From: Ignavibacteriales bacterium
GTDB lineage: Bacteria; Bacteroidota; Ignavibacteria; Ignavibacteriales; DAOSCP01
DNA length: 64,000 nucleotides
Assembly: GCA_035379625.1 (NCBI GenBank)
Contig: DAOSVM010000005.1
Location: forward strand, 29,833 to 93,832
Direction: 5' to 3'
The notes under the pieces are model-generated. The model had not been told where the DNA came from. It worked only from the letters and a program-made list of their open reading frames with translations, and made no database searches. The position numbers were made by a program, and so were the translations under genes. Below are positions 128-58,893 of this stretch, in pieces (the stretch's first letter is position 1; every line of letters begins with the position of its first letter).

Positions 128-166
128 AAAGCAAGCGAGCATAAGCAAGCTTGCTTTATTTTTATT
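128..166 (+). terminator. rho-independent terminator after serS
   Basis: Stem aaagcaagc (128-136) / gcttgcttt (149-157), followed by T-rich atttttatt. Confidence 0.6.
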
Positions 167-168
167 CA

Positions 169-684
169 TTAGCTCAGACAGTGTAAGTTTATGCCTCTTG
201 CAGCTTGATGAAAGCTGCAAGAGGCCAGCGGGCCGGTAAGGGCTCGCTAAAATTTTTCTAATAGCTCATTTACAAGGGGGAATAAAATCCTATTGACAGC
301 GTTGTTGGAGAGCAAAGGTTGTAAATTATGGTATATCATAATTACAAATATATAGATTATACAATTATATTGTAAAAACAAATATATTTTCAAAAATTTA
401 ATTATATCGTTAATACAAATATATTGTAAATACAAATATATTTTGTATAATTGCCATTATATCGTAATTACAATTATATCGAAGATACGAATATATTATA
501 TGAATTTTAAAATTTTCAACCTACATATAAAACTTACTTCAATAATTATTTGTATAAAAATATAAATGTTGTAAGTGGTAGATAATATGGTAGATAAAGG
601 GGGATAATTAGAATAATTTTTGGGCTTTAGCCCGCCCGTGCGCCTTCGTGCGCACGGGCTTTATGCTTATACCGTCTGAGCTAA
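169..684 (-). mobile_element. MITE-like ORF-less element, copy A (516 bp; inverted relative to B-D)
   Basis: TIRs are ttagctcagacagtgtaag (169-) and gcttataccgtctgagctaa (665-684). A perfect 14-bp hairpin lies at 193-206/212-225. A 10-bp hairpin gcccgtgcgc/gcgcacgggc lies at 634-643/650-659, with a mini-hairpin gggc/gccc at 622-625/630-633. The AT-rich core holds 7 phased 13-mers. The right end is the reverse complement of the left end of copy B. Confidence 0.75.
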
Positions 685-716
685 GGAAAAGATTCTTTTT
701 AGTGGAGCTCTTATTT

Positions 717-7200: not shown

Positions 7201-8090
7201 GTGTATGGAATCAAGTTGCATATTTAAGAAAAACAAATATGAATATATCTGATGCTTTAGTTAATATATTAGATAAGATTGAACTTGTAAAAGATGGTGC
7301 TGGAAATGTTTACTGGCCACTTTATGGAATTAACAATATTGGCCAAATGCAACCAGGACAAGGTTACTTAATAAAGACTAAATCAGGTATTTCGCAAGTT
7401 TCATTATTCTATCCTGCAAATACATTGTTACCAAAGAAACAACAAAATGTAGAAATTCCAAAACCTGAAAAATATGTTGTTAACTTTAATAGTGATAACA
7501 ATGCTACAGTAGCAATACCTGAAAACGTTATTTCTAAATATGCTAAAGAAGGTGATGAAGTAGGTATATTTAATAATGAAGGTAAATTGGTTGGTTCTGC
7601 TGTTTATACAAACGGAACAGTTGTTGTAACTGCTTGGGGTAAAGAAACTGGAAATGAAAAAGCTGAAGGTTTAGCAAATGGTGATAAATTCTCAATTAGA
7701 TTATTCAAGAAAGATGCTAACAAAGAGTTTGTATTGAAAACAACAAGCAGTGATAAAGTTTATACTCCTAACGGTGTTTATGTGATAGAAAATGTTAAAG
7801 GTGTTGAAGAATTCAGACCATTACCAAATAAATTTGATATTAGTCAAAATTATCCTAATCCATTCAACCCAACAACAACTATAAAATTTGCTCTTCCTGT
7901 TGATGCAAAAGTTGTAATAAATGTTTACAACGTTGTTGGTCAAAAAGTTGCTGAATTGGCTAATGGTGAATTTGAAGCTGGTTATCATACAGTTCAATTC
8001 AATGCTGCTGGCTTATCAAGTGGAATTTACTTCTACAAGATAGAAGCAGGGAAATTCACTGCTGTTAAGAAAATGATGTTAATTAAATAA
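4215..8090 (+). CDS. large secreted T9SS cargo protein with parallel beta-helix repeats
   Basis: Signal peptide. The N-terminal third has repeated G-rich beta-helix-like units (NSYNTGVKINN, NSGTGISIA, ATGVGIEL, TSGTGIYNN). The C-terminus NYPNPFNPTTTIKFALP...GIYFYKIEAGKFTAVKKMMLIK is a T9SS sorting domain. The start could be GTG 4215 or ATG 4218, after GGAGG. Confidence 0.85.
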   Translation: MMTKFFKLLTILMVLFINVSLFAQGAYEITGSETWSTNKQFNVPVIVKSGGKLTIEAGVTIEVFYADANADSIGDFKLQVEDGGKLIINGTLSSPVVFQPKEIYPVNNHWQGIILNSTNTNYRDTIKFVTIKNAYVGLDVSRDLYAIGVKVQNSYNTGVKINNFNSLSSSFYHGIKIDTVYNSGTGISIAKEGITINNAYVQKATGVGIELKAGSLTINNSKVLTSGTGIYNNVANTFANLNTVQESYIYKNTKSGVFNKGGYIKIYKDSIASNTFHGILTNGGKLLVELSTIHKNSSRGVLVGGASEVNFITSTVDSNSSYGFDICEVNLATDQLYSTITGTSVGAPKIIANLNNIKSNNGGNTQVQVKSRRTTPVSPSNPQDDFTQNYWYLTETLDGLFSMDLSGTVNYWNWKTSSSPTSNSKFPTSTVTNPTTMLALLNTSGNGSGTIDGLGTTTSNPTFTSTISARGGYTLRWNSAKHYPFVRIKIDTTGTTDVGTSDANYTSTRSILYVPNNGSYEIQVYRDPYPTTSGALWDDNYMRFTVTLYDYDGNASTYVYYGYQDFVNYNANRGKVISVNGVSTGNAQTIYSGKPIKIKWTVIDSAGTNVNIYYKRRNMDLRAANSLTIGNANCAVDLIASNVNTKEVNGEYLWTPPTDTLTTGINNAVGKIVIVRNFGTTPTTVSGANIVDTANTASITLEPAPYADWLYTDSTSVSQTIIIKDAVFNLNAAPGNGTIRYNGDLLGPGPYYYRVQVGDYIGAFYNGGQNCAGFVKVTTVPDGTLTNAISLKVWGDDPNTSVTDGASAGEQLTFKVWRPRWFRTTSVVEKNAEYDINGKIIPVDSVVYPYKNNAVTGIVFQNNSAIILDSLRYLRGSSSASTEGTGSQTVALSSGWNLVSSYIDVAGLTVEFDRQFRIGSNKATGVLDTLGEVCELVKDPAANILWPAQNVNQLGTWVNTSSYYIKLTAAANLIFPRTGNGNILSPQNTGITLQPGVWNQVAYLRKTNMNISDALVNILDKIELVKDGAGNVYWPLYGINNIGQMQPGQGYLIKTKSGISQVSLFYPANTLLPKKQQNVEIPKPEKYVVNFNSDNNATVAIPENVISKYAKEGDEVGIFNNEGKLVGSAVYTNGTVVVTAWGKETGNEKAEGLANGDKFSIRLFKKDANKEFVLKTTSSDKVYTPNGVYVIENVKGVEEFRPLPNKFDISQNYPNPFNPTTTIKFALPVDAKVVINVYNVVGQKVAELANGEFEAGYHTVQFNAAGLSSGIYFYKIEAGKFTAVKKMMLIK

Positions 8091-10260: not shown

Positions 10261-12863
10261 AGAAAGTAATAAATATAAGTTTATTAGTTATATCCTTTGT
10301 ACTGGCTCAAACAAAACCGGATTGGAAAGTAAACCCAAGTTTAGCTGGGTCGAATCATACTATTGTTATACCATTGGATGCAAATCCTAAAGTTAATGGT
10401 GTACCATTGCAAGCAGGTGATTATATTGGTGTATTTTATGATTCTTTAGGTATTAAATTTGCTTGTGGTGGTTTTAAGATGTGGGAAGGGGATAAAAATA
10501 TTGCAATTTCTGCGTTAGGTGATGATATTTTTACAAATGATAAGAAAGAAGGTTTTGCTGCAAATGAAAATTTTGTATGGAAGGTATGGAAAAAAAGTAA
10601 TAATCAAATTTATGATGTAGCTGTACAATTTAAATCTGGACAAGTTGTTTATACTCCTAATGGAACGTCTATTATTCAATCTTTAGGAGACAAAGTATTA
10701 CCTCCTTGGACCTTTAATAAAACAACTGTTTTTCATACAATAGTATTACCTAAAAGTTTAAATATTGTTGTAAACAAAATTAAACAAGTTCCACCTATTT
10801 ATGTTGGCGGTTTTTTCGATTCATTAGGTAACAAAGCCTGTGCAGGTTATGGAGAGTGGAATGGTGCAGCTGATGTTGAATTTAAAATTTATGGAGATAA
10901 TGCAAATACTGTTCCAAAGGAAGGTTTTTTTAATAATGAAAAGATTACTTTTTATATTTTTATTGTTGCAGAAAGAAAAATTATTGAAGTTAAAGCGAAA
11001 GTAAGAAGCGATTCCCCAAATGATACTTTCTTTATTCCAAATGGTAGAACTATTTTAGATTCTTTAATATCATTAAAAATAATTTCTGCAACCGATCCCG
11101 GTTGGGTTTTTACTCCAACAACTAATTATCATAAAGTAATTTTCCCATCCCGCCAGTCCGTTAAAATTGATGATTATTATATTGAAGATGGTGATTTTGT
11201 GGGTGCATTTTATAAAAAAAGTAATGATACTCTCGCTTGTGCTGGTTTTTTCCAATGGAATGGAGATATCCCCCAAGAATTAACTATTTGGGCTGATTAT
11301 CCCGATACGCGCAACAAAGAGGGATATTCAGTAGGGGATAAAATAACATTGTTGGTTTGGAGAAAGGCATCTCAATCTACCTTTTTTACTAATGTTAAAT
11401 GGATTAACGATAAATATAATTATCCAAATGATAGTATTTTTGCGATTTCTTCAATTTATAAAGATACTATTAAATTGGGTTATGGTTTAAGTGGGGTTGA
11501 GTTACTAACGAATGTTATTAGTGAAAAATATTTTCTCGAAAAGTCATTTTTCTTCAATGATTATAAGCTGCAAACTAGCTACAGAATTATTAGCTTGCCA
11601 GGTGTTCCAATTAGGTCGAATTCATATTTATTAGATTCTTTATTCCAAGGCGTTCCAAATAGAGATTGGATTGGTTTTAAATATAGTTCAGATGGTAAAC
11701 TTATACCTTATGAAAATAAAACACGTGGAGTTTTTAAATTTGCTCCAGGAAAAGCATTTTGGGTTCTTTCTAAGGTGCCATTAATTATTGAAAGAAGTAA
11801 TTATTTCCAAGCATATAATGTACCGACTAATGTAATTTTAAAAAATGATAAAATTGTTGCTTATTACGAAATTCCTTTGGATACAACTGGTAATTTATGG
11901 AATATTATTGCTAATCCATTTGATCAGCCAGTAAATTGGAAAGATATTATTGATTTTAATAATTCAGATTTTTTAAATAAACCAATATTCGAAACAGATA
12001 ATATTTATGAGTATTTAGGCACACAAGGATATAAAAAACAAGCAATTCTTGAACCTTATAGAGGATATTTTTACTATAATAGAACAAAACTTAAAAAATT
12101 AAAAATTCCTTATCCATTAAACAAAACTTTTAATAAAATAAGTAGTAATAATTATCAATATTTGAATTTAATGATAAGTAATGAACAAGATACAACTAAT
12201 TTAATTGTTTGGAATGTTCCCACATCAACAAAAGATTATGATAGATATGACGAATTATTGCCGCCAATTTCTTTTAATTCATTAACTGCTTTTATAGAAA
12301 ATACGAGTGCAAATATTGATTATAAAAAATTTAAATCTGATGCAAGATATATTGGTATTGGGCAAAAATATAACCTAAAAGTAGTTAGTAAAAATGGTGG
12401 AATTAAATTCAAATTAGATAATAAATTAAATGATGATTATCGAATTATTTTCGTCAATAAATCTAATGGTAAGGTTATTGATTTGAAGAATTTAAAGGAA
12501 TTTGAATATACTAATAATTTAAGTGATACATTATCATTTGATTTATTAATTGGTACAGAAGAGTTTTTCAAAAATACAAATGTAAAAATCGAGAAATTTG
12601 AGCTTTATCAAAATTATCCAAATCCATTTAACCCTAAAACAAAAATTAATTTTTCTATACCAGAAAATCTTTCAAATTATTTAGTAGAATTAAAGGTATA
12701 TGATATTTTGGGGAGAGAAATAGCTACACTTATTAATAAAAACCTGCCTTCAGGAATTTACAGTGTTGATTTTGATGGAAACAATTTATCGTCAGGTGTT
12801 TATTTTGCAAAATTAAGTGTTGCAAATAAGACAAAATTTATTAAGATGCAATTGATAAAATAG
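10248..12863 (+). CDS. T9SS cargo protein with three copies of an uncharacterised ~110-aa module
   Basis: Signal peptide. The module core is (GD[YF][IV]G[VA]FY...CAG...W.G) and occurs three times. The C-terminal T9SS domain is NYPNPFNPKTKINFSIP...GVYFAKL...KMQLIK. It overlaps the upstream gene by 13 nt. Confidence 0.8.
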   Translation: MDMVKKVINISLLVISFVLAQTKPDWKVNPSLAGSNHTIVIPLDANPKVNGVPLQAGDYIGVFYDSLGIKFACGGFKMWEGDKNIAISALGDDIFTNDKKEGFAANENFVWKVWKKSNNQIYDVAVQFKSGQVVYTPNGTSIIQSLGDKVLPPWTFNKTTVFHTIVLPKSLNIVVNKIKQVPPIYVGGFFDSLGNKACAGYGEWNGAADVEFKIYGDNANTVPKEGFFNNEKITFYIFIVAERKIIEVKAKVRSDSPNDTFFIPNGRTILDSLISLKIISATDPGWVFTPTTNYHKVIFPSRQSVKIDDYYIEDGDFVGAFYKKSNDTLACAGFFQWNGDIPQELTIWADYPDTRNKEGYSVGDKITLLVWRKASQSTFFTNVKWINDKYNYPNDSIFAISSIYKDTIKLGYGLSGVELLTNVISEKYFLEKSFFFNDYKLQTSYRIISLPGVPIRSNSYLLDSLFQGVPNRDWIGFKYSSDGKLIPYENKTRGVFKFAPGKAFWVLSKVPLIIERSNYFQAYNVPTNVILKNDKIVAYYEIPLDTTGNLWNIIANPFDQPVNWKDIIDFNNSDFLNKPIFETDNIYEYLGTQGYKKQAILEPYRGYFYYNRTKLKKLKIPYPLNKTFNKISSNNYQYLNLMISNEQDTTNLIVWNVPTSTKDYDRYDELLPPISFNSLTAFIENTSANIDYKKFKSDARYIGIGQKYNLKVVSKNGGIKFKLDNKLNDDYRIIFVNKSNGKVIDLKNLKEFEYTNNLSDTLSFDLLIGTEEFFKNTNVKIEKFELYQNYPNPFNPKTKINFSIPENLSNYLVELKVYDILGREIATLINKNLPSGIYSVDFDGNNLSSGVYFAKLSVANKTKFIKMQLIK

Positions 12864-13072: not shown

Positions 13073-14713
13073 ATGACACAAATTTTTAAGGTTCCACAAT
13101 TAGGTGAAAATATATCAGAAGCTACAATAGTAAAACTTTATGTTAAAGTTGGAGATACTGTTAAAAAAGATCAAATTTTGATGGAAGTTGAAGCCGGAAA
13201 AGCAAATCTAGAAATACAGGCAGATTTCGATGGTAAGATAACAAAATTGTTAGCAAATGAAGGGGATAAAATTCTTCCTTTGGGTGATATTGTTGAATAT
13301 GAGGTTACGGTTGAAACACCTCAGGACCCAATTATAAAGGAAGAGTTACCGGCGCAACAGACCACACTTACACCGTCTGAGCCAATTAAAGAAGAGAAAA
13401 AAAATAATATTTCTGAAGAAATTGAAGTATTATTACCAAATTTGGGAGAGAATATTGCAGAGGCTACCGTTGTTAAGGTAAATATTAAGGTTGGTGATGA
13501 AATTAAGAAAAATGAAATTGTTCTTGAGGTTGAAACCGGTAAGGCATCATTGGAGATTACATCGGAGTATGACGGTTCGATTAAAGCTGTTTTTGTTAAA
13601 GAAGGGGATAAAATTAAAATAGGGGATAAAATTTATACTATATTGGCTCGGACAGAAATAAGCTTGCCTTCGGATAAACCGAAGGAGGTTTCACCTGAAA
13701 TTAAAAAAGAAGTTCAAGTTGACACAAAGATTGAACCTAAACAAGAAAAAATAGCTAACACTGATGAATTTAAAGTTGATACGTATAATGTAAGTAAAAA
13801 TATTTTTGTGCTTGCATCACCTTCAGTAAGGAAATTTGCAAGAGAAATTGGAGTAACAATATCTGACGTAAAACCATCTGATGGCAAAAGAGTTACAATT
13901 GAAGATGTGAAGCAGCATGCTAAAAATATATTGCAAAATTTAGGTAAAGCTGAAGTTAATCAAGCTAAAATTCCACAGAGCGGATATTTTGAACCGCTTC
14001 CAGATTTTACTAAGTGGGGAGATATAAAAGCTGAGGAATTAAGTAATATCCGAAGAGTAACCGCGCAGCATTTACATTTTTCGTGGTCGCAAATACCGCA
14101 TGTTACGCAGTTTGATAAGGCAGATATTACAGATTTAGAAGAGTTTCGTTTGAAGCTTGTTAAAAAGTATCCTGATTCGAAGATTACAATTACATCCATA
14201 ATTGCAAAAGTTCTAAGCTTAGCATTGAAGAAATTTCCACAATTTAATTCAAGTTTAGATTTACAAAATAATAAATTAATTTATAAGAATTATTACCATA
14301 TTGGTATTGCAGTTGATACCGACAAAGGTTTGGTTGTTCCAGTAGTAAGGGATGTTGACAAAAAATCATTATTTGATATATCAAAGGATATAAATTTATT
14401 AGCAATCAAAGCAAGAGATAAAAAATTATCATTAGAAGAGATGCAGGGGGGAACATTTACAATATCGAATTTAGGTGGTATTGGAGGTACCTATTTTACA
14501 CCGATAGTAAATTATCCTGAAGTTGCTATATTAGGAATATCTAGAAGTTCGTATGAGCCCAAATATAATGGAACAACTTTTGAGCCAAGATTGATGTTGC
14601 CTTTATCGTTATCATATGATCATAGAGTAATAGATGGAGCTGATGGGATAAGATTTTTGAGATACATTATTGATATTTTAGAAAATCCATACAATATGTT
14701 GATACAATTATAA
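13073..14713 (+). CDS. 2-oxoacid dehydrogenase E2 component (dihydrolipoamide acyltransferase), two lipoyl domains
   Basis: Two lipoyl motifs (MEVEAGKANLEI, LEVETGKASLEI). E3-binding domain ASPSVRKFAREIGV. Catalytic motif SYDHRVIDGADG. Confidence 0.9.
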   Translation: MTQIFKVPQLGENISEATIVKLYVKVGDTVKKDQILMEVEAGKANLEIQADFDGKITKLLANEGDKILPLGDIVEYEVTVETPQDPIIKEELPAQQTTLTPSEPIKEEKKNNISEEIEVLLPNLGENIAEATVVKVNIKVGDEIKKNEIVLEVETGKASLEITSEYDGSIKAVFVKEGDKIKIGDKIYTILARTEISLPSDKPKEVSPEIKKEVQVDTKIEPKQEKIANTDEFKVDTYNVSKNIFVLASPSVRKFAREIGVTISDVKPSDGKRVTIEDVKQHAKNILQNLGKAEVNQAKIPQSGYFEPLPDFTKWGDIKAEELSNIRRVTAQHLHFSWSQIPHVTQFDKADITDLEEFRLKLVKKYPDSKITITSIIAKVLSLALKKFPQFNSSLDLQNNKLIYKNYYHIGIAVDTDKGLVVPVVRDVDKKSLFDISKDINLLAIKARDKKLSLEEMQGGTFTISNLGGIGGTYFTPIVNYPEVAILGISRSSYEPKYNGTTFEPRLMLPLSLSYDHRVIDGADGIRFLRYIIDILENPYNMLIQL

Positions 14714-24021: not shown

Positions 24022-24450
24022 TTACTTAATTTCTATTTGTTTTGCAGCTGGTTTTTCAGGTTCTTTCTTTTGCATTGTAATTGTAAGTACACCATTTTCG
24101 TAATTAGCTTCAATTGTGTCTGTTAAGACATCATCACCGAGGTTAAAGCTTCTTGTAAACGCTCCTTCAACTCGTTCAGATAAATAATATTTCTTATCTT
24201 TTTCTGTTTTTTCAAATCTTTTTTCACCTTGGATTGTGAGAACATTATTATCAAGAGTTACTTTAATATCATCTTTTTTGAAACCAGGAACTTCAATCTC
24301 GAAGTTTAATTTTCCATCTTTTTCATAAACATCGATTGATGGATATAATTTTGTTGTTGAAGGAGCTGCAAAGACATCAGTTACATAACGTTCAAATTCT
24401 TTAATAGCATTTTCAAATTCTTTGAACGGATTATACTTTACTAATGCCAT
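24022..24450 (-). CDS. Hsp20/alpha-crystallin small heat-shock protein
   Basis: Alpha-crystallin domain: ...IEVPGFKKDDIKVTLDNNVLTIQGEK...GAFTRSFNL...ANYENGVLTI. Confidence 0.9.
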   Translation of the reverse strand: MALVKYNPFKEFENAIKEFERYVTDVFAAPSTTKLYPSIDVYEKDGKLNFEIEVPGFKKDDIKVTLDNNVLTIQGEKRFEKTEKDKKYYLSERVEGAFTRSFNLGDDVLTDTIEANYENGVLTITMQKKEPEKPAAKQIEIK

Positions 24451-24474: not shown

Positions 24475-24897
24475 TTATTTTATTTCTATTTGTTTTACTT
24501 CTGGTTTAACAGGTTCTATTTTGTTTAATGTTATTGTCAAAACTCCGTTTTCAAAACTAGCTGAAATATTTTCTTTGTCAATTGTTTCATCAAGTGTAAA
24601 GCTTCTTGAGAATGAACCACTCATTCTTTCGCTAAAGTAATACTTCCTATCTTTCTTTTCAGTTTCTAATTTCTTTTCTCCCGAAATTGTTAACATGTTT
24701 TCTTCTAAGGTTATTTTTACATCGTCCTTTTTGAAACCAGGTATTTCTACTTCTAAGATTATTTTGTTATCTTCTTCATAAGCATCAACTTTTACTAAAT
24801 GATTATAATTTACATTGTTTCTTGTTTGTACATCATTTAGTAAATTATCGAATTCTTTGAATAAAGATAACACTGGATTAAATCTTACTAATGTCAT
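24475..24897 (-). CDS. Hsp20/alpha-crystallin small heat-shock protein (second copy)
   Basis: Paralogue of the gene above (VEIPGFKKDDVKITLEENMLTISGEK...GSFSRSFTL...ASFENGVLTI). I start at MTLVRFNP (ATG 24897), which is preceded by GGAGGG. The longer ORF to 25110 adds an implausible Cys/Ile-rich extension. Confidence 0.88.
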   Translation of the reverse strand: MTLVRFNPVLSLFKEFDNLLNDVQTRNNVNYNHLVKVDAYEEDNKIILEVEIPGFKKDDVKITLEENMLTISGEKKLETEKKDRKYYFSERMSGSFSRSFTLDETIDKENISASFENGVLTITLNKIEPVKPEVKQIEIK

Positions 24898-36118: not shown

Positions 36119-36125
36119 ATTTATT

Positions 36126-36148
36126 GGCCCGGCATAGCCGGGTTTTTT
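36126..36148 (+). terminator. rho-independent terminator after htpG
   Basis: cccggc-ata-gccggg followed by tttttt. Confidence 0.8.
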
Positions 36149-36155
36149 ATAATTA

Positions 36156-36652
36156 TTAGCTCAGACAGTGTAAGCATAAAGCCCGTGCGCCTGGCGGCGC
36201 ACGGGCGGGCTGAAGCCCAAAAAAATAATATTCCATTTAAGCGCCATAACCACCACATTACCAACCAGTTACAATATTTATATTTTTCATCAAGAATAAA
36301 AATTTTATGAAATATTTTTTATAATTTACCGGCAAGTTTTCAAATCTTATAATATATTCGTAAATACGATATAATAGCTTTAACAATATAATTGTAAATG
36401 CAATTATACTATAAAAAACATAGCATCATATGTAAAAATTTGCAAAATTACATTTTAGCTTAGTCAAAAGATTAATTTTTATCAAACACTCCTTATCCTA
36501 CGGGTTGCCAGGTATTTTGGAAAGATATAAGTATAAAGGCCAAAGCACTACACTTTGTTAGGTGTTAAAGAAAAGATTTTATGCGGGCCGTTCCGGCCCG
36601 CGCCCACGTGCGGCAACGCCGCACGTGGGCTATGCTTATACCGTCTGAGCTA
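36156..36652 (+). mobile_element. MITE-like ORF-less element, copy B (497 bp)
   Basis: Alpha end: TIR ttagctcagacagtgtaagc (36156-75), hairpin gcccgtgcgc/gcgcacgggc (36181-90/36197-206), then gggc-tgaa-gccc and an A-run. Beta end: hairpins gcgggccg/cggcccgc (36583-90/36594-601) and gcccacgtgcggc/gccgcacgtgggc (36602-14/36618-30), then TIR gcttataccgtctgagcta (36634-52). The core is AT-rich. Confidence 0.75.
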
Positions 36653-36842
36653 TGATAAAAAAATGAATTTTTTAATATTTTTGAAAATAAATTTTGTTTT
36701 TTGCATCATATCATTTCTATAACTACAATTTATGGAATTAAATTATTGTTAAAATTTTTTTAAATAAAGAAAAAAAGTTAGAAATTGTTTATATTATAAT
36801 TTTAAATTTGGCATTTTTTTTAAAATTTTAGTGAGGGGTTAA

Positions 36843-40403: not shown

Positions 40404-40409
40404 AATAAA

Positions 40410-40436
40410 GGCCGCCCGTAAGGGCGGTTTTTTTTT
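40410..40436 (+). terminator. rho-independent terminator after nifJ
   Basis: ccgccc-gtaa-gggcgg followed by ttttttttt. Confidence 0.85.
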
Positions 40437-40448
40437 ATCTCCTTTTAT

Positions 40449-40918
40449 TTAGCTCAGACGGTGTAAGCTTAGCCCGCTTGCGCGGGCAGGGCTAAAGCCC
40501 AGAATAAATATTTAACATACAACCCCATATCAACAATATAATCAACACCTTACGCTATTTATTTAGCATAAAATCAACTAAAATTTATAGTTTTTTATAC
40601 AAATAATATATTCGTATTTGCAATATATTTGTATTTACGATATATTAGCAATTATTAAAAATATCTTTGTAATTGTATTATATTTGTATTTGTAATAATA
40701 TTGTATCTACGATATATATTATCTTCAAAATTATATTGTTTTATAGATATAGTTTTAAAAGCTGTAAGTAATTAAAATATTGCAGGAATTTTTTTTGTAG
40801 ATAAGAAGATTTTTAATTGTTAGCAAAAATGCTTCGCCAACCAACTTTATATTAAGGAAGAAAATTAATTCCCCTTACAAAAGGGGATTAAAGGCTATGC
40901 TTATACTGTCCGAGCTAA
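40449..40918 (+). mobile_element. MITE-like ORF-less element, copy C (470 bp)
   Basis: Alpha end: TIR ttagctcagacggtgtaagc (40449-68), hairpin gcccgc-ttgc-gcgggc (40472-87), then gggc-taaa-gccc. Beta end: hairpin tcccctt-acaa-aagggga (40870-87) and TIR gcttatactgtccgagctaa (40899-918). The core holds 17-bp phased motifs. Confidence 0.75.
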
Positions 40919-40941
40919 TGAAAAATTTTTTTTTCAATAAT

Positions 40942-40991: not shown

Positions 40992-42849
40992 TTATTTGAC
41001 CAACATCATCTTTTTGCTAATTTTTACATTTCCTGCTTCTAAACTGTAAATATAAATACCACTTGTTAAGCTATTTCCATTGAAGTTGATGCTGTAATAA
41101 CCTGCTTCTTGCTCGCCTTCATATAATTTCATAACTTCTTGGCCTGCAATGTTGTAGACTTTCAATATAACTTTTGAGCTTTGTGGTATACCATAATTTA
41201 TTACTGTAGTTGGATTAAAAGGATTTGGATAATTTTGTTTTAATTCATATTGCATTGGACGTATGTTTTCCAATACCAATGTATTGCTGTATTTGTAGCT
41301 GCCATCGTTATCTACTATCTTCAAACGATATGAACTATTTGACGTAATATTATTGTCTTCAAAACTATATTTATGTTCCACATTTGAATTTCCTGCTGCT
41401 GTAACTTCACCAACCTTTAACCATTTTCCCGAAACTAATTTTTCAACTTCAAATCTATTACTATTAACCTCAGATTTTGTAATCCAAGTTAGCTCAATTT
41501 TTGAGTTAATATATCTATAGTTAAATGAAGATAACTCAACAGGAAGCGGACCATCGATGATTATTACATCATCTATATAGTTGGATTGGTATGAATTCCC
41601 ACTTGCTCCTATTGCAATTAGATAATTACCCGCCGCAAGAGGTGATAAATCTACGCTACATAAATTCCAAGAATAAACTGCGTTAAAAGTTGAACCAATT
41701 TGTGTCCAATTTGTTCCGTTATCTGTAGAATATAACACTTTATTACTACCAGAACCATAATTATAAAATTGGATTAACCCACTCCCACCTTGTAATGTTA
41801 CATTTTTGTAGATTTTCTCATCAGTAAAACTACTGCTAGAATAACATTGAGCACTTGCATTTCCACCAGGTCTATAAATTGATGTATTTCTACTATATTT
41901 TGTGCTTGCAGACCAACCTGTAGGTGGGAAAGTTATATTTTCAAATCCTTCCGCTGTTGTACCTGCTGGGAAAATAGTAACATTTGTGTTGGCAGTATTA
42001 TTCGTATTATTATCATCAGCTTGAGATTCAGCTGTAACAGTGAAAATACCACCAACTGTTGGAGTCCAAGGAATATCAATATTGGTTGTTTGACCGGCGT
42101 TAAGACTTGCTATTGTACCACTATTGACTGTATTAGTCCCAACTTTCAAATTAATTGTAATATTGGAAAGATTATTTAAACCTTCATTAGATACGTTAAC
42201 TCTAAATGTTTGTTCATTTCCCGCAATTTGGTTACCAGTGTATAATTGGACAGAATTTACTTTTATATCATTATTATTTACAACACTAATTTCAAATTTA
42301 TCAATCCAAACATCATTTAAACTGTAAGCTGCATTTACTTCCAAAGCAAATTTTGCATTATTTACATTATAAGCTAGTGGAATATCAAACGTTTTTTTTT
42401 GTCCAACTTGTTGATGTTGTAACATTACTTCCTATTTGATTAAAAGTGCTACCACCGTCAGATGAAGCGTATACTTTAACTATAGCCGAACCAGAATAGT
42501 AATAATGATAAAATGACAACCTTTTACTTGATGTTGATGATAAATCAATTTGTGGTGTTATAAGTCTTCTGGTATTACCAGAATTACAATAATAATCATT
42601 GAAATGAGCAACTGCAGAACCATCATAAGCCCCAGTAGGTTTAGTCCCATTACCTAAAGGAGACCAAGAACCACTCCATACTGCCTTTTCCCAATATATT
42701 GATGTATTTGTACCGGTAGCGATTTGTGCCCAACCTGAAGGTGCTGTACCGTTTGTACTAGGAGACCAAGTTCCTTCAAATGAATCGCTAAATATTACTT
42801 GAGCATTTAATGTAAAAGATATAAATAAAAAATAAAATAATTTTTTCAT
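40992..42849 (-). pseudogene. T9SS cargo protein (choice-of-anchor-J-like x2, CARDB-like, C-terminal sorting domain) split by a frameshift in an A9 run
   Basis: ORFs 42385-42849 and 40992-42425 overlap at the coding-strand A9 tract (42392-42400). With A8 the reading ...TSWTKKTFDIPLAYN... is continuous (~618 aa). The N-terminal signal is followed by FSDSFEG...PSGW. A second copy reads AEGFENITFPPTGW. The C-terminus is NYPNPFNPTTVINYGIP...GIYIYSL...KMMLVK. Confidence 0.7.
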
Positions 42850-42942
42850 TTTAACTCCTTGTTAATATTTGTTATATATAAATTATGTAAAATAAATATA
42901 ATTGTCAAGTTAAATATTTTGTAAACACGATATATATTTTTA

Positions 42943-43353
42943 TTAGCTCAGACGGTGTAAGCTTAGCCCGCTTGCGCGGGCAAGGCTAAAGCCCAGAAAA
43001 ATTCTTACTAACACGCTATAACTTACCTATTTTCAATGAATTACAGTATATTTATATTTTTTACAATAATCAAAAATGAAAAATTATGAATATTAATAGC
43101 AAATGTAAAATTCTTATAATATTTTTGTATATACGATATAATTGTACCTGCAATATAAATTAAATTTGCGAAAATATATACTTATATACGATATTGTATA
43201 AAAAAACGAAAATATTAGTAATGTAAAACAATAGTATAAATAATATAATTGTATTAGTGATATATATTAGGTAAAGCTCCGCTATACCTGCGTGCTGGCA
43301 GGCAACTACTTGTTAAGAGTGCAATAGGTTTAAGCTTATACTGTCCGAGCTAA
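42943..43353 (+). mobile_element. MITE-like ORF-less element, copy D (411 bp)
   Basis: The alpha end (42943-42998) matches copy C at 55 of 56 positions. The beta end has a weak hairpin cctgc/gcagg (43287-91/43298-302) and TIR gcttatactgtccgagctaa (43334-53). That TIR plus flank matches C over 26 bp. Confidence 0.75.
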
Positions 43354-43423
43354 TGAAAATTTTTATTTTTAATTTGAGTTATATTCTTAAATTGTTTATA
43401 TTACTTAAAAAAAAGTATGAATT

Positions 43424-49487: not shown

Positions 49488-50312
49488 TTAAATCACATAG
49501 TTTATAATATTATCATCATCTTTTTGATTGCGAACTTTTACATTACTTTTATGATAAACAACCGAAAAAGGTGGAACGCTTTCAATGAGCCAAACATTAC
49601 CGCCAATAATGCTATTATTACCAATAACAGTATCTCCGCCCAAAATAGTTGCACCAGAATATATGATAACATTATCTTCAATAGTTGGGTGCCTTTTGCT
49701 TTTGTTGGTAGTTTTTTCAACACTTAACGCACCTAATGTAACACCTTGGTAAAGTTTAACATTATCTCCAATTACTGTAGTTTCACCAATAACAATACCA
49801 GTGCCGTGGTCAATACAGAAACGTTTACCAATTTTTGCACCAGGATGAATATCTATTCCCGTCAATTGATGCGCATACTCGGTTAACAATCTTGGAAAAA
49901 TAGGAACATTTAATTCATAAAAAACATTAGCAACGCGATAAATGGAAATAGCTAAAAATCCGGGATAAGTTATTATAACTTCATCAACATTTTCAGCGGC
50001 TGGATCACCACGCTCTATTGCATCCGCATCTTGCAGCAGTGATAAATAAATTTCTTCTAATCTATTAAAAAATATATCCGCAATAGCAGTAATTTCCTTC
50101 TCATCAACAATATGACGTAATATTTTTATTAAATCAATTCTTAATTTAAGCTTTTCAACAGTGATTTCTTCCAATGAGCTATATCTCTTTTGGCTAAAAT
50201 GCGGGAACAATAGCCCCAACAAATTCTCTATAAAAAGCTGTGTGTCCTTTCTAAAAGATAATTCCAATGAACTTTTTTGCCTAAAATCGTATATTAAATT
50301 TTCTAAAGCCAT
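49488..50312 (-). CDS. cysE: serine O-acetyltransferase
   Basis: Hexapeptide-repeat C-terminal half (GIDIHPGAKIGKRFCIDHGTGIVIGETTVIGDNVKLYQGVTLG). The start ATG overlaps the manA stop (TAATG). Confidence 0.88.
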   Translation of the reverse strand: MALENLIYDFRQKSSLELSFRKDTQLFIENLLGLLFPHFSQKRYSSLEEITVEKLKLRIDLIKILRHIVDEKEITAIADIFFNRLEEIYLSLLQDADAIERGDPAAENVDEVIITYPGFLAISIYRVANVFYELNVPIFPRLLTEYAHQLTGIDIHPGAKIGKRFCIDHGTGIVIGETTVIGDNVKLYQGVTLGALSVEKTTNKSKRHPTIEDNVIIYSGATILGGDTVIGNNSIIGGNVWLIESVPPFSVVYHKSNVKVRNQKDDDNIINYVI

Positions 50313-51538
50313 TAGTTATAACTCACTAAAAAAATTTGCAAATCAGTAGTTGGGATAAACTTCAAATCGTTATTTACTCCAATTAAATACGCTTCACCTT
50401 TATTAACAATAATTTCTTCGTTAAAGTTTCTAAGAGCAAAACTATTACCAATATTTAATAAAATATAAAATTTATCATATGAATTAAATTCTACCTGACT
50501 TTTCGAAAAAACTCGCCGAATGTTAAATTCAATATTAAAAGCATTTTTTGAGTTTTCTATTTGGCTCGGACGGTGTAAGCTTGATGGCCGCTGTAACTGA
50601 CTTTTAGCACCAAAACCTTCTGTTATATAGTCGAAAACTTCACTAACAGGTTTAATCAATAAAAGATCATCAGTTACTTTGAAAATTTTTATAAGAGTTG
50701 CAATATCCTTGAACTTAGGAGTTAAACCAATTCTTACAACATTATCAGAATTAGCCATACATTCGACAATATTTCCAGTTAAGTAAGCGTGCGGAATTCC
50801 AGCTTCCAAAAATACAGCTTCACCTTCTTTTAACTCAACAAAATTCAATAAATAAAGGCACAATAAACCAACATCATATTTTCCATACTTTTCATAACAA
50901 AATTTATAATAATTAGATAATTTATCATTTTCTGACTTGATTTTATTATAAATAAAATCGGTTAATTTAGCATACTCAGGATTATTTTGAGAATTACTAA
51001 CATAAGCTTTAAATATATCGCTTGGTGAATGACTTTCAACATTAATAAAATGATTTAAATAAGTTTTAATTTCTGGAAAAATAACAAAAAGTTCATTCAA
51101 CTTTTCAATGGATTTTAAACCAACCAAAGCTTCCAATTTATCTATTGCTATTGCAATTTCAGGTTTATGGTTGTCATCAGGATAATTATTAGGATCTTTC
51201 AAATGTAATACCGCAGCTTGTTGCTTATTCGGATGAGCCTGAATTGAAAGCGGTTGCTCAATCGATAATACTTTTAAAAGAAATGGAAGTTTAATATATT
51301 TTTCATAAAACTTTGTACCAATTATATCTTTTTCTTTTTCAATAAAATCAGATAATAAAATAGTTTCATTTTTATAAATTATTTTTGAAGGTAAAGATGG
51401 ATGAACACCTAACCAATACTCAGCATATGGTTTATTTGGTTCTGTTTTAATATTTAAAAGTTTTGGGATATAAGCATTTTCGTTTCGTGTTCCCCAATCA
51501 TAATGTTGTATATTTCCAGTAAGCTTAAAAACATTCAT
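50312..51538 (-). CDS. manA: mannose-6-phosphate isomerase, class I
   Basis: HYDWGT, QAHPNK, YPDDNHKPEIAIAI and CMANSDNVVRIGLTPKFKD are type I PMI signatures. The gene contains an in-frame TIR-like insert (see the repeat feature at 50561-50595). Confidence 0.9.
   Translation of the reverse strand: MNVFKLTGNIQHYDWGTRNENAYIPKLLNIKTEPNKPYAEYWLGVHPSLPSKIIYKNETILLSDFIEKEKDIIGTKFYEKYIKLPFLLKVLSIEQPLSIQAHPNKQQAAVLHLKDPNNYPDDNHKPEIAIAIDKLEALVGLKSIEKLNELFVIFPEIKTYLNHFINVESHSPSDIFKAYVSNSQNNPEYAKLTDFIYNKIKSENDKLSNYYKFCYEKYGKYDVGLLCLYLLNFVELKEGEAVFLEAGIPHAYLTGNIVECMANSDNVVRIGLTPKFKDIATLIKIFKVTDDLLLIKPVSEVFDYITEGFGAKSQLQRPSSLHRPSQIENSKNAFNIEFNIRRVFSKSQVEFNSYDKFYILLNIGNSFALRNFNEEIIVNKGEAYLIGVNNDLKFIPTTDLQIFLVSYN
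50561..50595 (+). repeat. solo alpha-TIR-like relic of the element family inside the manA coding sequence
   Basis: ttggctcggacggtgtaagctt matches the C/D alpha end (ttagctcagacggtgtaagctt) at 20 of 22 positions. It is followed by a partial hairpin arm (ggccgctg). It is read in frame as ...QLQRPSSLHRPSQ... Confidence 0.6.
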
Positions 51539-56671: not shown

Positions 56672-58276
56672 GTGGAATTTATGCAACAAAAAAATTATAA
56701 GTTGTTTGTTCCCGGCGATTTAAACGGTTTTTTTGCTTTAATGTTTGATAATTTAACAGTTTTATCTTTTTTAGCTGGCATTTTAATCTTCGTCTTTCAA
56801 TATCCTGCTGAAATTGTTTTTGGAAAAATGTTCCCAGGTACTGCTTTTGGTGTTTTAGTTGGAGATTTATTATATTCTTATTTAGCTATTAGATTGGCAA
56901 ATAAAACCGGTAAACCAAACGTAACTGCAATGCCCCTCGGACTTGATACACCATCAACTATTGGCATTGCTCTTACTGTACTTGGACCTGCATTCTTGTA
57001 CTTAAAAAATAAATATAATGTTCAAGATGCAGCAATGATGACATGGTATATCGGTATGTCTACAATGGTTATGATTGGAATTACAAAATTTATTTTTTCC
57101 TTTATTGGTCATAAAATACAAAAATTATTACCACAAGCTGGTTTATTAGGTTCTTTAGCTGGTATTGGCCTAGCTTTAATAGGATTTATGCCAATTGCCG
57201 AAATTTTCGGTATGCCAATTGTTGGAGTAATTTCTTTAGGAATAATCCTTTATACTTTGATTGCCCGTATCCAACTTCCTGGAAAAATTCCTCCTGTTTT
57301 ATTCGCCGTTGTTATTGGAACAATTCTTTATTATATAATTGCTCCTTTAGGCTTTGTTGGTACTAGCTTTGAAATGCCCAAATTAGAATTGCATTTCGGC
57401 TTACCAATTCCAACTTTTAATTTTATTAACGGTTTTGTAGAATCATTAAATTATCTACCAATAGCTTTTCCTTTTGCATTATTAACAATTGCAGGTGCTA
57501 TCAATGTTACTGAAAGTGCAAATGTCGCTGGCGATGATTATAAAGTAAAAGAAATAATGTGGGTCGATGCTTTAGCAACTACAATTTCCGGTTTGTCAGG
57601 CGGCGTTGCTCAAACAACACCTTATATAGGACATCCTGCTTACAAAGCTATGGGAAGTAGAATTGGCTATACAATTATTACCGGACTTTTTGTAGGACTT
57701 GGCGGTATTTTTGGTTATGCTTCTTTTATTGTTGAGCTTATTCCAAGAGCAGTATTAGCACCAATACTTGTATTTGTCGCTTTAGATATCATGGCAATGG
57801 CGTTTCACGTTGTTAAACCAAAGTATTCTATGGCTGTCGCTTTTGCATACTTCCCTACAGTTGCCAGGTTACTCGAAATAAAACTAACAAACCCAGAATA
57901 TGTCCCAACTAACGTTTTTGAAACTCTTACAAAAACAATTGGGAAACACATACCTGAAATTTCAGTTATTGTTGCACTCGGTAACGGATTTATTCTCACG
58001 GCTATGCTTTGGGCTGCATTCATTGCAAATTTAATCGATAGAAAATTTATACATAGTTGTTTCTACTTATTACTTCTTGCGTTATTATCATTTTTTGGAA
58101 TAATTCATTCAGCTTTACCAAACGGGAATATGTATTTACCTTGGACATTACCAGCATACTTACAAGTTATTCCTTATCAATTTTCATTAGCATATATTGC
58201 CTTAAGCATACTATTCTTTTTACTTTCATTCTCAAAACAAGCAAAAGTACCCTATAAAGAAGAAGAAGCTGTCTAA
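56672..58276 (+). CDS. putative nucleobase permease (NCS2/AzgA-like); family assignment tentative
   Basis: Membrane protein of about 12-14 transmembrane helices, last gene of the salvage operon. The family call rests on general resemblance and context only. The start is GTG 56672 or ATG 56681. Confidence 0.5.
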   Translation: MEFMQQKNYKLFVPGDLNGFFALMFDNLTVLSFLAGILIFVFQYPAEIVFGKMFPGTAFGVLVGDLLYSYLAIRLANKTGKPNVTAMPLGLDTPSTIGIALTVLGPAFLYLKNKYNVQDAAMMTWYIGMSTMVMIGITKFIFSFIGHKIQKLLPQAGLLGSLAGIGLALIGFMPIAEIFGMPIVGVISLGIILYTLIARIQLPGKIPPVLFAVVIGTILYYIIAPLGFVGTSFEMPKLELHFGLPIPTFNFINGFVESLNYLPIAFPFALLTIAGAINVTESANVAGDDYKVKEIMWVDALATTISGLSGGVAQTTPYIGHPAYKAMGSRIGYTIITGLFVGLGGIFGYASFIVELIPRAVLAPILVFVALDIMAMAFHVVKPKYSMAVAFAYFPTVARLLEIKLTNPEYVPTNVFETLTKTIGKHIPEISVIVALGNGFILTAMLWAAFIANLIDRKFIHSCFYLLLLALLSFFGIIHSALPNGNMYLPWTLPAYLQVIPYQFSLAYIALSILFFLLSFSKQAKVPYKEEEAV

Positions 58277-58291
58277 TAAGGCAGCTTTTTT
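58266..58291 (+). terminator. rho-independent terminator overlapping the permease stop
   Basis: aagctg-tctaataagg-cagctt followed by ttttt. Confidence 0.6.
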
Positions 58292-58295
58292 GTTA

Positions 58296-58893
58296 TTGGG
58301 CTCGGGCAGTATAAGCTTAGAATATAGCAATTATCACCTTAAATTTATAACTTTACACCTAACCTTAACACAAATCATTAACCTTGAGCATGTTAACAAA
58401 AAATTTTTGAAATACTCACAATCTTTTATTCTCGTTAATGTTACAATAGAATAATATTAATTTAACTATTAATTTTAGCACTCTTAATTTGAAAAATTAA
58501 ATAAAAATTATACCTCAATTAAAAAATTGTTAAAAATTAGACAAAATAAAGTAATTTATCCGTAAGCAATAATTATATAGAAATATTTAAATATATAATA
58601 AAAAATAAATTTAAATTAGCTTAATATATAGATAAAATACTATTTTTATCAAAATATTTACTAAAAATTAAAAATATTTATAACCTACTGATAAATAATA
58701 AGATATATAAAAATTATAAATAAACAAAAACAAAATATAAAATAAAAAATCTTATAATTAAAGAAAATAATATGAAAAAAACAAATATAAAAAAAAGTTA
58801 GTATGGCTTAAAAAAAACAATATATCGTATATAAATAATATTGCAAATACAAATATATTGTAAATACAATTATATAATTATTATAAGCTCGGT
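58296..58893 (-). mobile_element. degenerate or rearranged copy E of the element family
   Basis: The left end ttgggctcgggcagtataagc (58296-316) resembles the reverse complement of the C/D beta TIR, with 2 substitutions and a 1-nt indel. A core group with TAC motifs 17 bp apart (58848, 58865) and an abutting inverted half-site lies at 58818-58880. A truncated taagctcgg sits at 58883-92. No GC hairpins are present. Confidence 0.4.

Follow-up and report, generated by a model that had tools for sequence, protein, structure and literature searches.

A lineage-specific, in-frame insertion in the manA gene of an Ignavibacteriales bacterium carries one terminus of a MITE-like repeat family

The manA gene of an Ignavibacteriales bacterium contains an in-frame segment that resembles the TIR of a family of short repeats dispersed through the 64,000-nucleotide stretch of DNA analysed here (the window). 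This locus raises the question of whether the resemblance reflects common descent and, if so, how the end of an element came to be translated as part of a metabolic enzyme. The initial annotation had described the 408-aa class I phosphomannose isomerase (PMI) ORF as unbroken, and the uninterrupted reading frame, together with a match of its product to the PMI type I catalytic domain (PMI_typeI_cat, Pfam PF20511; E=8e-40), bears this out. The QAHPNK, NHKPE and ANSDNVVRIGLTPK motifs are likewise intact when read from the translation. ManA matched the Candida albicans enzyme 1PMI in a phmmer search (E=9e-58), and its residues Q100, H102, E127 and H250, which are invariant in the 15 proteins of alignment A1, align to the QAHP, NHKPE and PHAY motifs of 1PMI; from the C. 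albicans structure, we take these four residues to be the zinc ligands. An AlphaFold (AF2) model of ManA built from alignment A1 had a mean pLDDT of 84.9 and superposed on the structures of C. albicans 1PMI and Salmonella PMI (3H1W) with TM values of 0.79-0.84. ManA therefore has the full-length fold and the conserved zinc-binding residues in common with the class I PMI structures (1PMI; Salmonella 3H1W/2WFP), whereas the extra 27-residue loop that joins strands one and two of its C-terminal domain has no counterpart in them.

The segment within manA had been reported to match the left ends of two repeats, copies C and D, at 20 of 22 positions, and the same count was obtained when 50561-50582 was compared with 40449-40470 and 42943-42964. 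Five sites of the window fall within three mismatches of TTGGCTCGGACGGTGTAAGCTT: the one in manA, those at 40449 and 42943, and, with three mismatches each, the right end of copy D (43332-43353) and a site in an E2 gene (13364-13385). In 100 dinucleotide-preserving shuffles, no match was found at this threshold. An nhmmer TIR profile from which the manA and E2 copies had been left out recovered manA 50555-50583 with E=5.5e-7, and a richer profile, made from 178 non-redundant family ends, delimited the segment given in Table 1. Pairwise alignment to copy C extended over 50555-50592, including about ten subterminal bases. The tip of the TIR points to low coordinates, and the interior of the element would run towards 50617. 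The continuation into a hairpin arm noticed at first is weak but present (AAGCTTGATGGCCGCT vs AAGCTT-A-GCCCGCT in copy C), and the in-frame translation of the minus strand reads QLQRPSSLHRPSQ, as had been stated. The G variant at 50563, by which the manA frame reads AGC CAA and not AGC TAA, would fit selection for an open frame; the TTG form is found in 24 of the 178 family ends.

Comparison with homologous proteins revealed that this segment lies in an insertion. In alignment A1, all ten homologues from other lineages (10/10) have a gap opposite ManA residues 308-334 (GFGAKSQLQRPSSLHRPSQIENSKNAF). They include P0007-P0009, the closest insert-free homologues (381 aa, 52-55% identical). P0007 is a syntenic orthologue, with matching neighbours on one side (acid phosphatase B, aminotransferase, dCMP deaminase, TK and nucleoside transporter) and on the other (hexapeptide transferase, cysK and permease). 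No TIR was found in two regions of this sister lineage totalling 43 kb, as against about 11 TIR hits in the 64-kb window. The initial annotation had reasoned that the same stretch in orthologues from element-free genomes would speak against an element origin; the syntenic P0007 and nine more distant ManA proteins are all without the peptide. Its suggestion of a lineage-specific insert thus stands with regard to absence from all other-lineage homologues, and its size has to be revised from 13 aa to 27 aa (81 bp). The insert was carried by all same-species proteins examined (NCBI, JGI, ENA and Logan; 98-100% identical), and the insert is not an assembly artefact, as the sequence is identical in assemblies from these four sources. 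In addition, the 81 bp are nucleotide-identical in strains L001 and L002, whose manA has 12 other differing sites, an identity that is uninformative on selection because only about 0.8 substitutions would be expected at 1% divergence. The nearest insert-free orthologue is about 55% identical and the database has no intermediate relatives, so the timing and the exact boundaries of the insertion are loose.

The position and the composition of the insert were then compared with the rest of the gene. Residues 307-335 form the sole segment of the AF2 model with pLDDT <50 and lie in the C-terminal domain, flanked by strands 301-304 and 338-345, in agreement with the predicted location in a C-terminal-domain loop. 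Apart from the insert, the model superposed on solved PMI structures at a TM of about 0.8, and the insert appeared as an extra surface loop. Judging from this model, the ManA fold should tolerate the insert as a floppy or disordered surface loop, and the enzyme would be expected to retain its activity. The GC-rich island described in this AT-rich gene was also recovered: the 37-nt core has 57% GC vs 26% for manA without the insert, and holds the top 35-nt GC window of the gene. Among the codons of the core, CGG occurs 0.2 times per 1000 codons in the long ORFs of the window (1% of Arg codons) and CCG 2.4 times (6% of Pro codons); CGT, CAG, AGC and CAC of the TIR core are likewise uncommon in these ORFs. 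As judged from composition, the TIR core is foreign DNA in manA. Towards its edges, the insert uses codons that are ordinary for the host genome, and a search of the outer parts of the 81 bp against the elements of the window and of loci L001-L013 gave no match beyond the TIR, so that only about half of the 81 bp is assignable to the element with confidence. The remainder would be either unrecognisable element interior, flank, or host loop sequence.

A second TIR was sought to the right of the first one in manA, by alignment to right-end TIRs and to its own left end in reverse complement, and the scores were no better than those of shuffled sequences (p>0.1). The manA segment is for this reason a one-ended, truncated remnant. 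A miniature complete element in manA was also considered and ruled out, as its right part aligns no better than shuffled sequence.

Table 1. Positions of the features described in the text (window coordinates unless a locus is named)
Feature	Position	Strand	Remarks
Copy A	162..690	+	both TIRs
E2 TIR-like segment TTGGCTCAGACGGTGTAAGT	13364..13393	-	in E2 ORF 13073-14713, read QTTLTPSEPI
Copy B	36149..36659	+	both TIRs
Copy C (reference)	40443..40941	+	both TIRs, GC-rich subterminal hairpins, AT-rich core
Copy D (reference)	42937..43360	+	both TIRs
manA, class I phosphomannose isomerase	50312..51538	-	408 aa, ORF intact
81-bp (27-codon) insertion in manA, GFGAKSQLQRPSSLHRPSQIENSKNAF	50537..50617	-	residues 308-334; from gap in alignment A1; boundaries +/- ~1 codon
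Homology to the outer (alpha/left) end of the family	50549..50590	+	nhmmer, 178-end profile
TIR core in manA, TTGGCTCGGACGGTGTAAGCTT	50561..50582	+	20/22 to copies C and D; minus strand SSLHRPSQ
G for consensus A (TTGGCTC vs TTAGCTC)	50563	+	manA frame CAA (Gln), not TAA (stop)
Copy E, degenerate	58290..58890	+	left TIR, AT-rich core motif 58834-58883, no clear right TIR
Core palindromic motif sites	338-510, 36340-36420, 40595-40720, 43100-43270, 58830-58885		
Terminator-adjacent left ends	150-170, 36125-36155, 40405-40448, 58270-58296; L001 6135-6170		
TIR intervals with restriction-modification genes	L037 3747-5731; L063 1563-2989; L113 458-1884; L066 2249-4630		

The family to which this terminus belongs is represented in the window by at least four complete copies, plus a degenerate one near 58290. 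Full copies consist of a TIR, GC-rich subterminal stem-loops, an AT-rich core, more stem-loops and a second TIR; the boundaries of copy C were set from a paralogous copy in locus L105. The AT-rich cores contain a repeated palindromic motif, AATTGTAAAT(A/G)CAATT / TACGATATA, at spacings of about 17-18 and 54-72 nt, and from their sequence these motifs look like protein-binding sites or promoter-like boxes. A known RNA was discarded as an explanation of the elements: an Rfam gathering scan and ARAGORN gave one tRNA-Ser, located elsewhere in the window. Left ends of elements were observed 5-25 nt downstream of intrinsic-terminator hairpins with T-runs, and on the right side an A-run and a convergent terminator come after many of the ends; this adjacency could mean that such sites are preferred as targets, or that the TIR is longer than recognised and poorly conserved in its outer part. 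Copy D is preceded on its left by 80 bp (42862-42942) that recur, with 88% identity, beside another element copy (L105 1958-2031), and because this flank is itself repeated, the repeat landscape is modular or nested beyond the TIR-bounded unit.

A TIR scan of metagenomes extended the family to at least 106 AT-rich loci (888 kb). Among the loci listed, at least 190 TIR profile hits were found, many of them solo ends, as well as at least 60 +/- TIR pairs of 165-772 bp, with a mode of about 545; distinct family ends number more than 170 and are spread over many contigs. Two comparisons substantiate the earlier claim that the family has been mobile. The L105 copy, 94.5% identical to copy C, stands at another locus, with a right flank that differs from that of C and a left flank that matches the flank of D. 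In L001, a 547-bp copy occupies the cysK-permease spacer, which measures 655 bp in this strain vs 37 bp in the sister species. This full element (L001 6172-6718) directly follows the cysK terminator and is itself followed by the ancestral permease gene; the manA of this strain is 99% identical. At about 48380, the window sequence diverges fully within a few bases of the start of the L001 TIR, which, as judged from the two sequences, marks a strain-level rearrangement with its breakpoint at an element end.

A BLAST search with joined element flanks for a same-species empty site returned one site only, with two length variants of a single copy. Direct repeats of 2-8 nt, sought as TSDs at any offset in 61 elements, were not enriched over shuffled flank pairs, and a possible TA duplication is inseparable from TIR bases. 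A search for a transposase within TIR pairs found none, the longest open stretches in typical pairs being below 100 codons. The label "MITE-like" rests on architecture and copy dispersal because empty site, TSD and transposase were not found; it describes short TIR-bounded copies with no transposase coding capacity, dispersed and with signs of movement. As in bacterial MITEs such as Correia/NEMIS, ERIC, BOX and Nezha (PMC10969869), the elements have TIRs of about 22-30 bp and sizes of 165-770 bp, lack a transposase ORF, occur as many diverged and mostly intergenic copies, and carry GC-rich subterminal stem-loops. The present family differs from these MITEs in having no TSD demonstrated beyond the possible TA (61 elements), in its AT-rich core with repeated AATTGTAAAT(A/G)CAATT-like palindromes, and in the location of copies near intrinsic terminators. 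Larger +/- TIR intervals enclose HsdS-like type I specificity subunits and a DNA methyltransferase (Table 1), and could be composite units, or else solo ends that happen to be neighbours. Regarding distribution, a search of viral contigs with the TIR gave no match, and a scan of genome contigs gave at least seven loci, a number that says little on host range. One full element with both TIRs is present at L011 2981-3535, in a contig labelled uncultured Clostridium sp. (CAYXOL010000098); this contig is probably mis-binned Ignavibacteriales, or else a sign of a wider host range. A full-text literature search for MITEs in Ignavibacteria returned nothing, and the family is probably undescribed in Ignavibacteriales.

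The presence of a terminus within manA led to the question of how often the family is found in coding DNA. Few of its TIR hits, a small share among the loci listed, fall in long ORFs, and those that do are read in differing frames and orientations. At L053 4278-4442 (Ga0209409_1001839), a 165-bp copy, complete with both TIRs, is read in-frame within the PLD-SNF2 helicase P0241 (1213 aa) and coincides with an insertion of about 67 aa that is absent from 12 of 12 aligned homologues (38-45% identical). This copy corroborates the proposal that the family can land in coding DNA, and it is the only whole element found within an ORF. Solo TIR segments were found in a PMT_2 glycosyltransferase loop (L109 3502-3526, read TLIPSEPNK) and, after the Competence domain, in a ComEC-like ORF (L038 789-818); the latter case is ambiguous, as a right TIR 636 bp downstream, past the stop codon, could pair with it. 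The E2 segment of the window (nhmmer E=5e-6) falls in a 2-oxo-acid dehydrogenase E2, in the linker that joins its two lipoyl domains. This linker is hypervariable and its length does not exceed that of homologues, so an insertion cannot be demonstrated there, and on these grounds the E2 linker was dropped as a second proven insertion. The exact 11-mer TTGGCTCGGAC is also present at 13643-13653. In-ORF hits in L085 (54% GC) and L067 (39% GC) are exact 20-mers, probably chance pattern matches, and were left uncounted.

These data make it probable that a TIR-bounded, MITE-like copy inserted in manA and was mostly lost, leaving one terminus as a tolerated in-frame loop. A non-autonomous element of a kind abundant in the Ignavibacteriales lineage would have entered manA where the gene codes for a surface loop in the C-terminal beta-domain, and most of it would then have been lost. 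What was left over would be a single terminus, of which about 42 nt are recognisable, within an 81-bp in-frame and stop-free insertion that would be translated as a 27-residue disordered loop, tolerated by the enzyme and fixed in the sampled population. The segment would have no mechanism of its own and represent a molecular fossil. Starting from the demonstrated TIR homology, lineage-specific insertion, open frame, foreign composition and low-confidence-loop position, we infer that a later deletion, selected for restoring the frame, brought about the truncation. The mode of entry, transposition, is likewise inferred rather than shown, because no TSD has been demonstrated for the family and no transposase was found.

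The single end and the undetectable TSD would be expected as well if TIR DNA had been captured in manA without transposition, either as filler DNA or through ectopic templated repair or recombination at a double-strand break, the element end being copied together with a little of its flank. We regard such a capture as unlikely, though it is the most serious of the alternatives. The 24 nt outside the tip (50537-50560) contain a T-run placed like those that flank many intergenic copies, which could mean that a donor flank was co-copied; on the other hand, A-runs outside right ends mirror these T-runs, and both may belong to a poorly conserved outer TIR. Element ends may be recombination hot spots, as the synteny break of L001 within a few bases of a TIR would suggest, whereas the two-TIR copy in another ORF indicates that insertion of whole elements into coding DNA does happen.

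The initial annotation had left the choice between a truncated insertion and an excision footprint, and the single long end favours the former. Cut-and-paste excision leaves footprints of a few bases plus the TSD. In manA, about 42 nt of one terminus were kept, subterminal sequence included, and the other terminus is undetectable (scores no better than those of shuffles, p>0.1), in place of a very short remnant with both ends. Although the insertion is short and the family evidently has moved, the excision of an inserted element is therefore a highly improbable origin of the segment.

Exaptation of the loop, in which a TIR-derived peptide would serve the function or the regulation of ManA and be kept by selection, also seems very doubtful. 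The 100% conservation of the insert in strains whose manA differs at 12 other sites carries no weight when about 0.8 substitutions are expected in 81 bp. The TIR core has kept 90% identity to the consensus, a feature that could be attributed to selection, but rare codons persist in it, and recency fits better than optimisation. The loop is, moreover, predicted to be disordered, and there is no other pointer to a function. Finally, almost no credence can be given to a coincidental resemblance, or to an ancestral loop from which the TIR of the element was derived, since nothing except the short length of the match speaks for it, whereas no shuffle in 100 gave such a match, the profile that excluded the manA copy returned E=5.5e-7, the segment is missing in all orthologues, and more than 170 distinct family ends exist on many contigs.

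Tolerated insertion of a MITE-like copy in manA has known parallels. In-frame MITE insertions are documented, most famously for the Rickettsia palindromic elements (RPEs) (PMC10969869). Like the manA segment, RPEs are small non-autonomous repeats inside intact ORFs that add an in-frame segment which orthologues lack, at places where the fold tolerates it, in manA a predicted surface loop. They also recur in unrelated genes, as this family does in manA, in the helicase and probably in the E2 linker, with PMT_2 and ComEC as candidates. In contrast, RPEs are kept whole (about 150 bp) with a peptide conserved across the family, whereas manA retains one end of about 42 nt in an 81-bp insert, and the in-ORF copies of the present family differ in frame and orientation. 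The hosts also differ, being an obligate intracellular alphaproteobacterium in the case of RPEs and free-living uncultured Ignavibacteriales from digester and sludge metagenomes here. In three of ten RPE families nearly half of the copies lie in long ORFs (PMC10969869), as compared with the small share of TIR hits in this family. We tentatively propose, as a broader reading that may well prove wrong, that an undescribed MITE family acts in an RPE-like manner in a free-living bacterium, with repeated landings in loop or linker parts of housekeeping genes (manA, the E2 linker, the PMT_2 glycosyltransferase, ComEC and the PLD-SNF2 helicase) that survive as stop-free translated segments and provide raw material for new loops.

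The outgroup comparison and the structure model show that, in a free-living bacterium, the terminus of a mobile element can persist, translated, within an enzyme of core metabolism. They also point to an abundant undescribed repeat family of Ignavibacteriales that occasionally enters ORFs whole and that could help to mark strain-level rearrangements in metagenome-assembled genomes (MAGs). The manA insert amounts to a small natural experiment on how well the PMI fold tolerates added loops. General principles are unchanged, because in-frame MITE insertions had already been documented, and the manA case is a real and fairly ordinary instance of "selfish DNA" tolerated in a protein.

Other repeats were also observed in the window. 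Three stretches (7830-7897, 12594-12661 and 41180-41258) are DNA-level repeats of the coding sequence for the Por/T9SS C-terminal sorting domain (NYPNPFNP) in three secreted-protein genes. In addition, two 100-nt direct repeats (24022-24121 and 24475-24574), 73% identical and 453 nt apart, probably represent small paralogous genes arranged in tandem on the minus strand.
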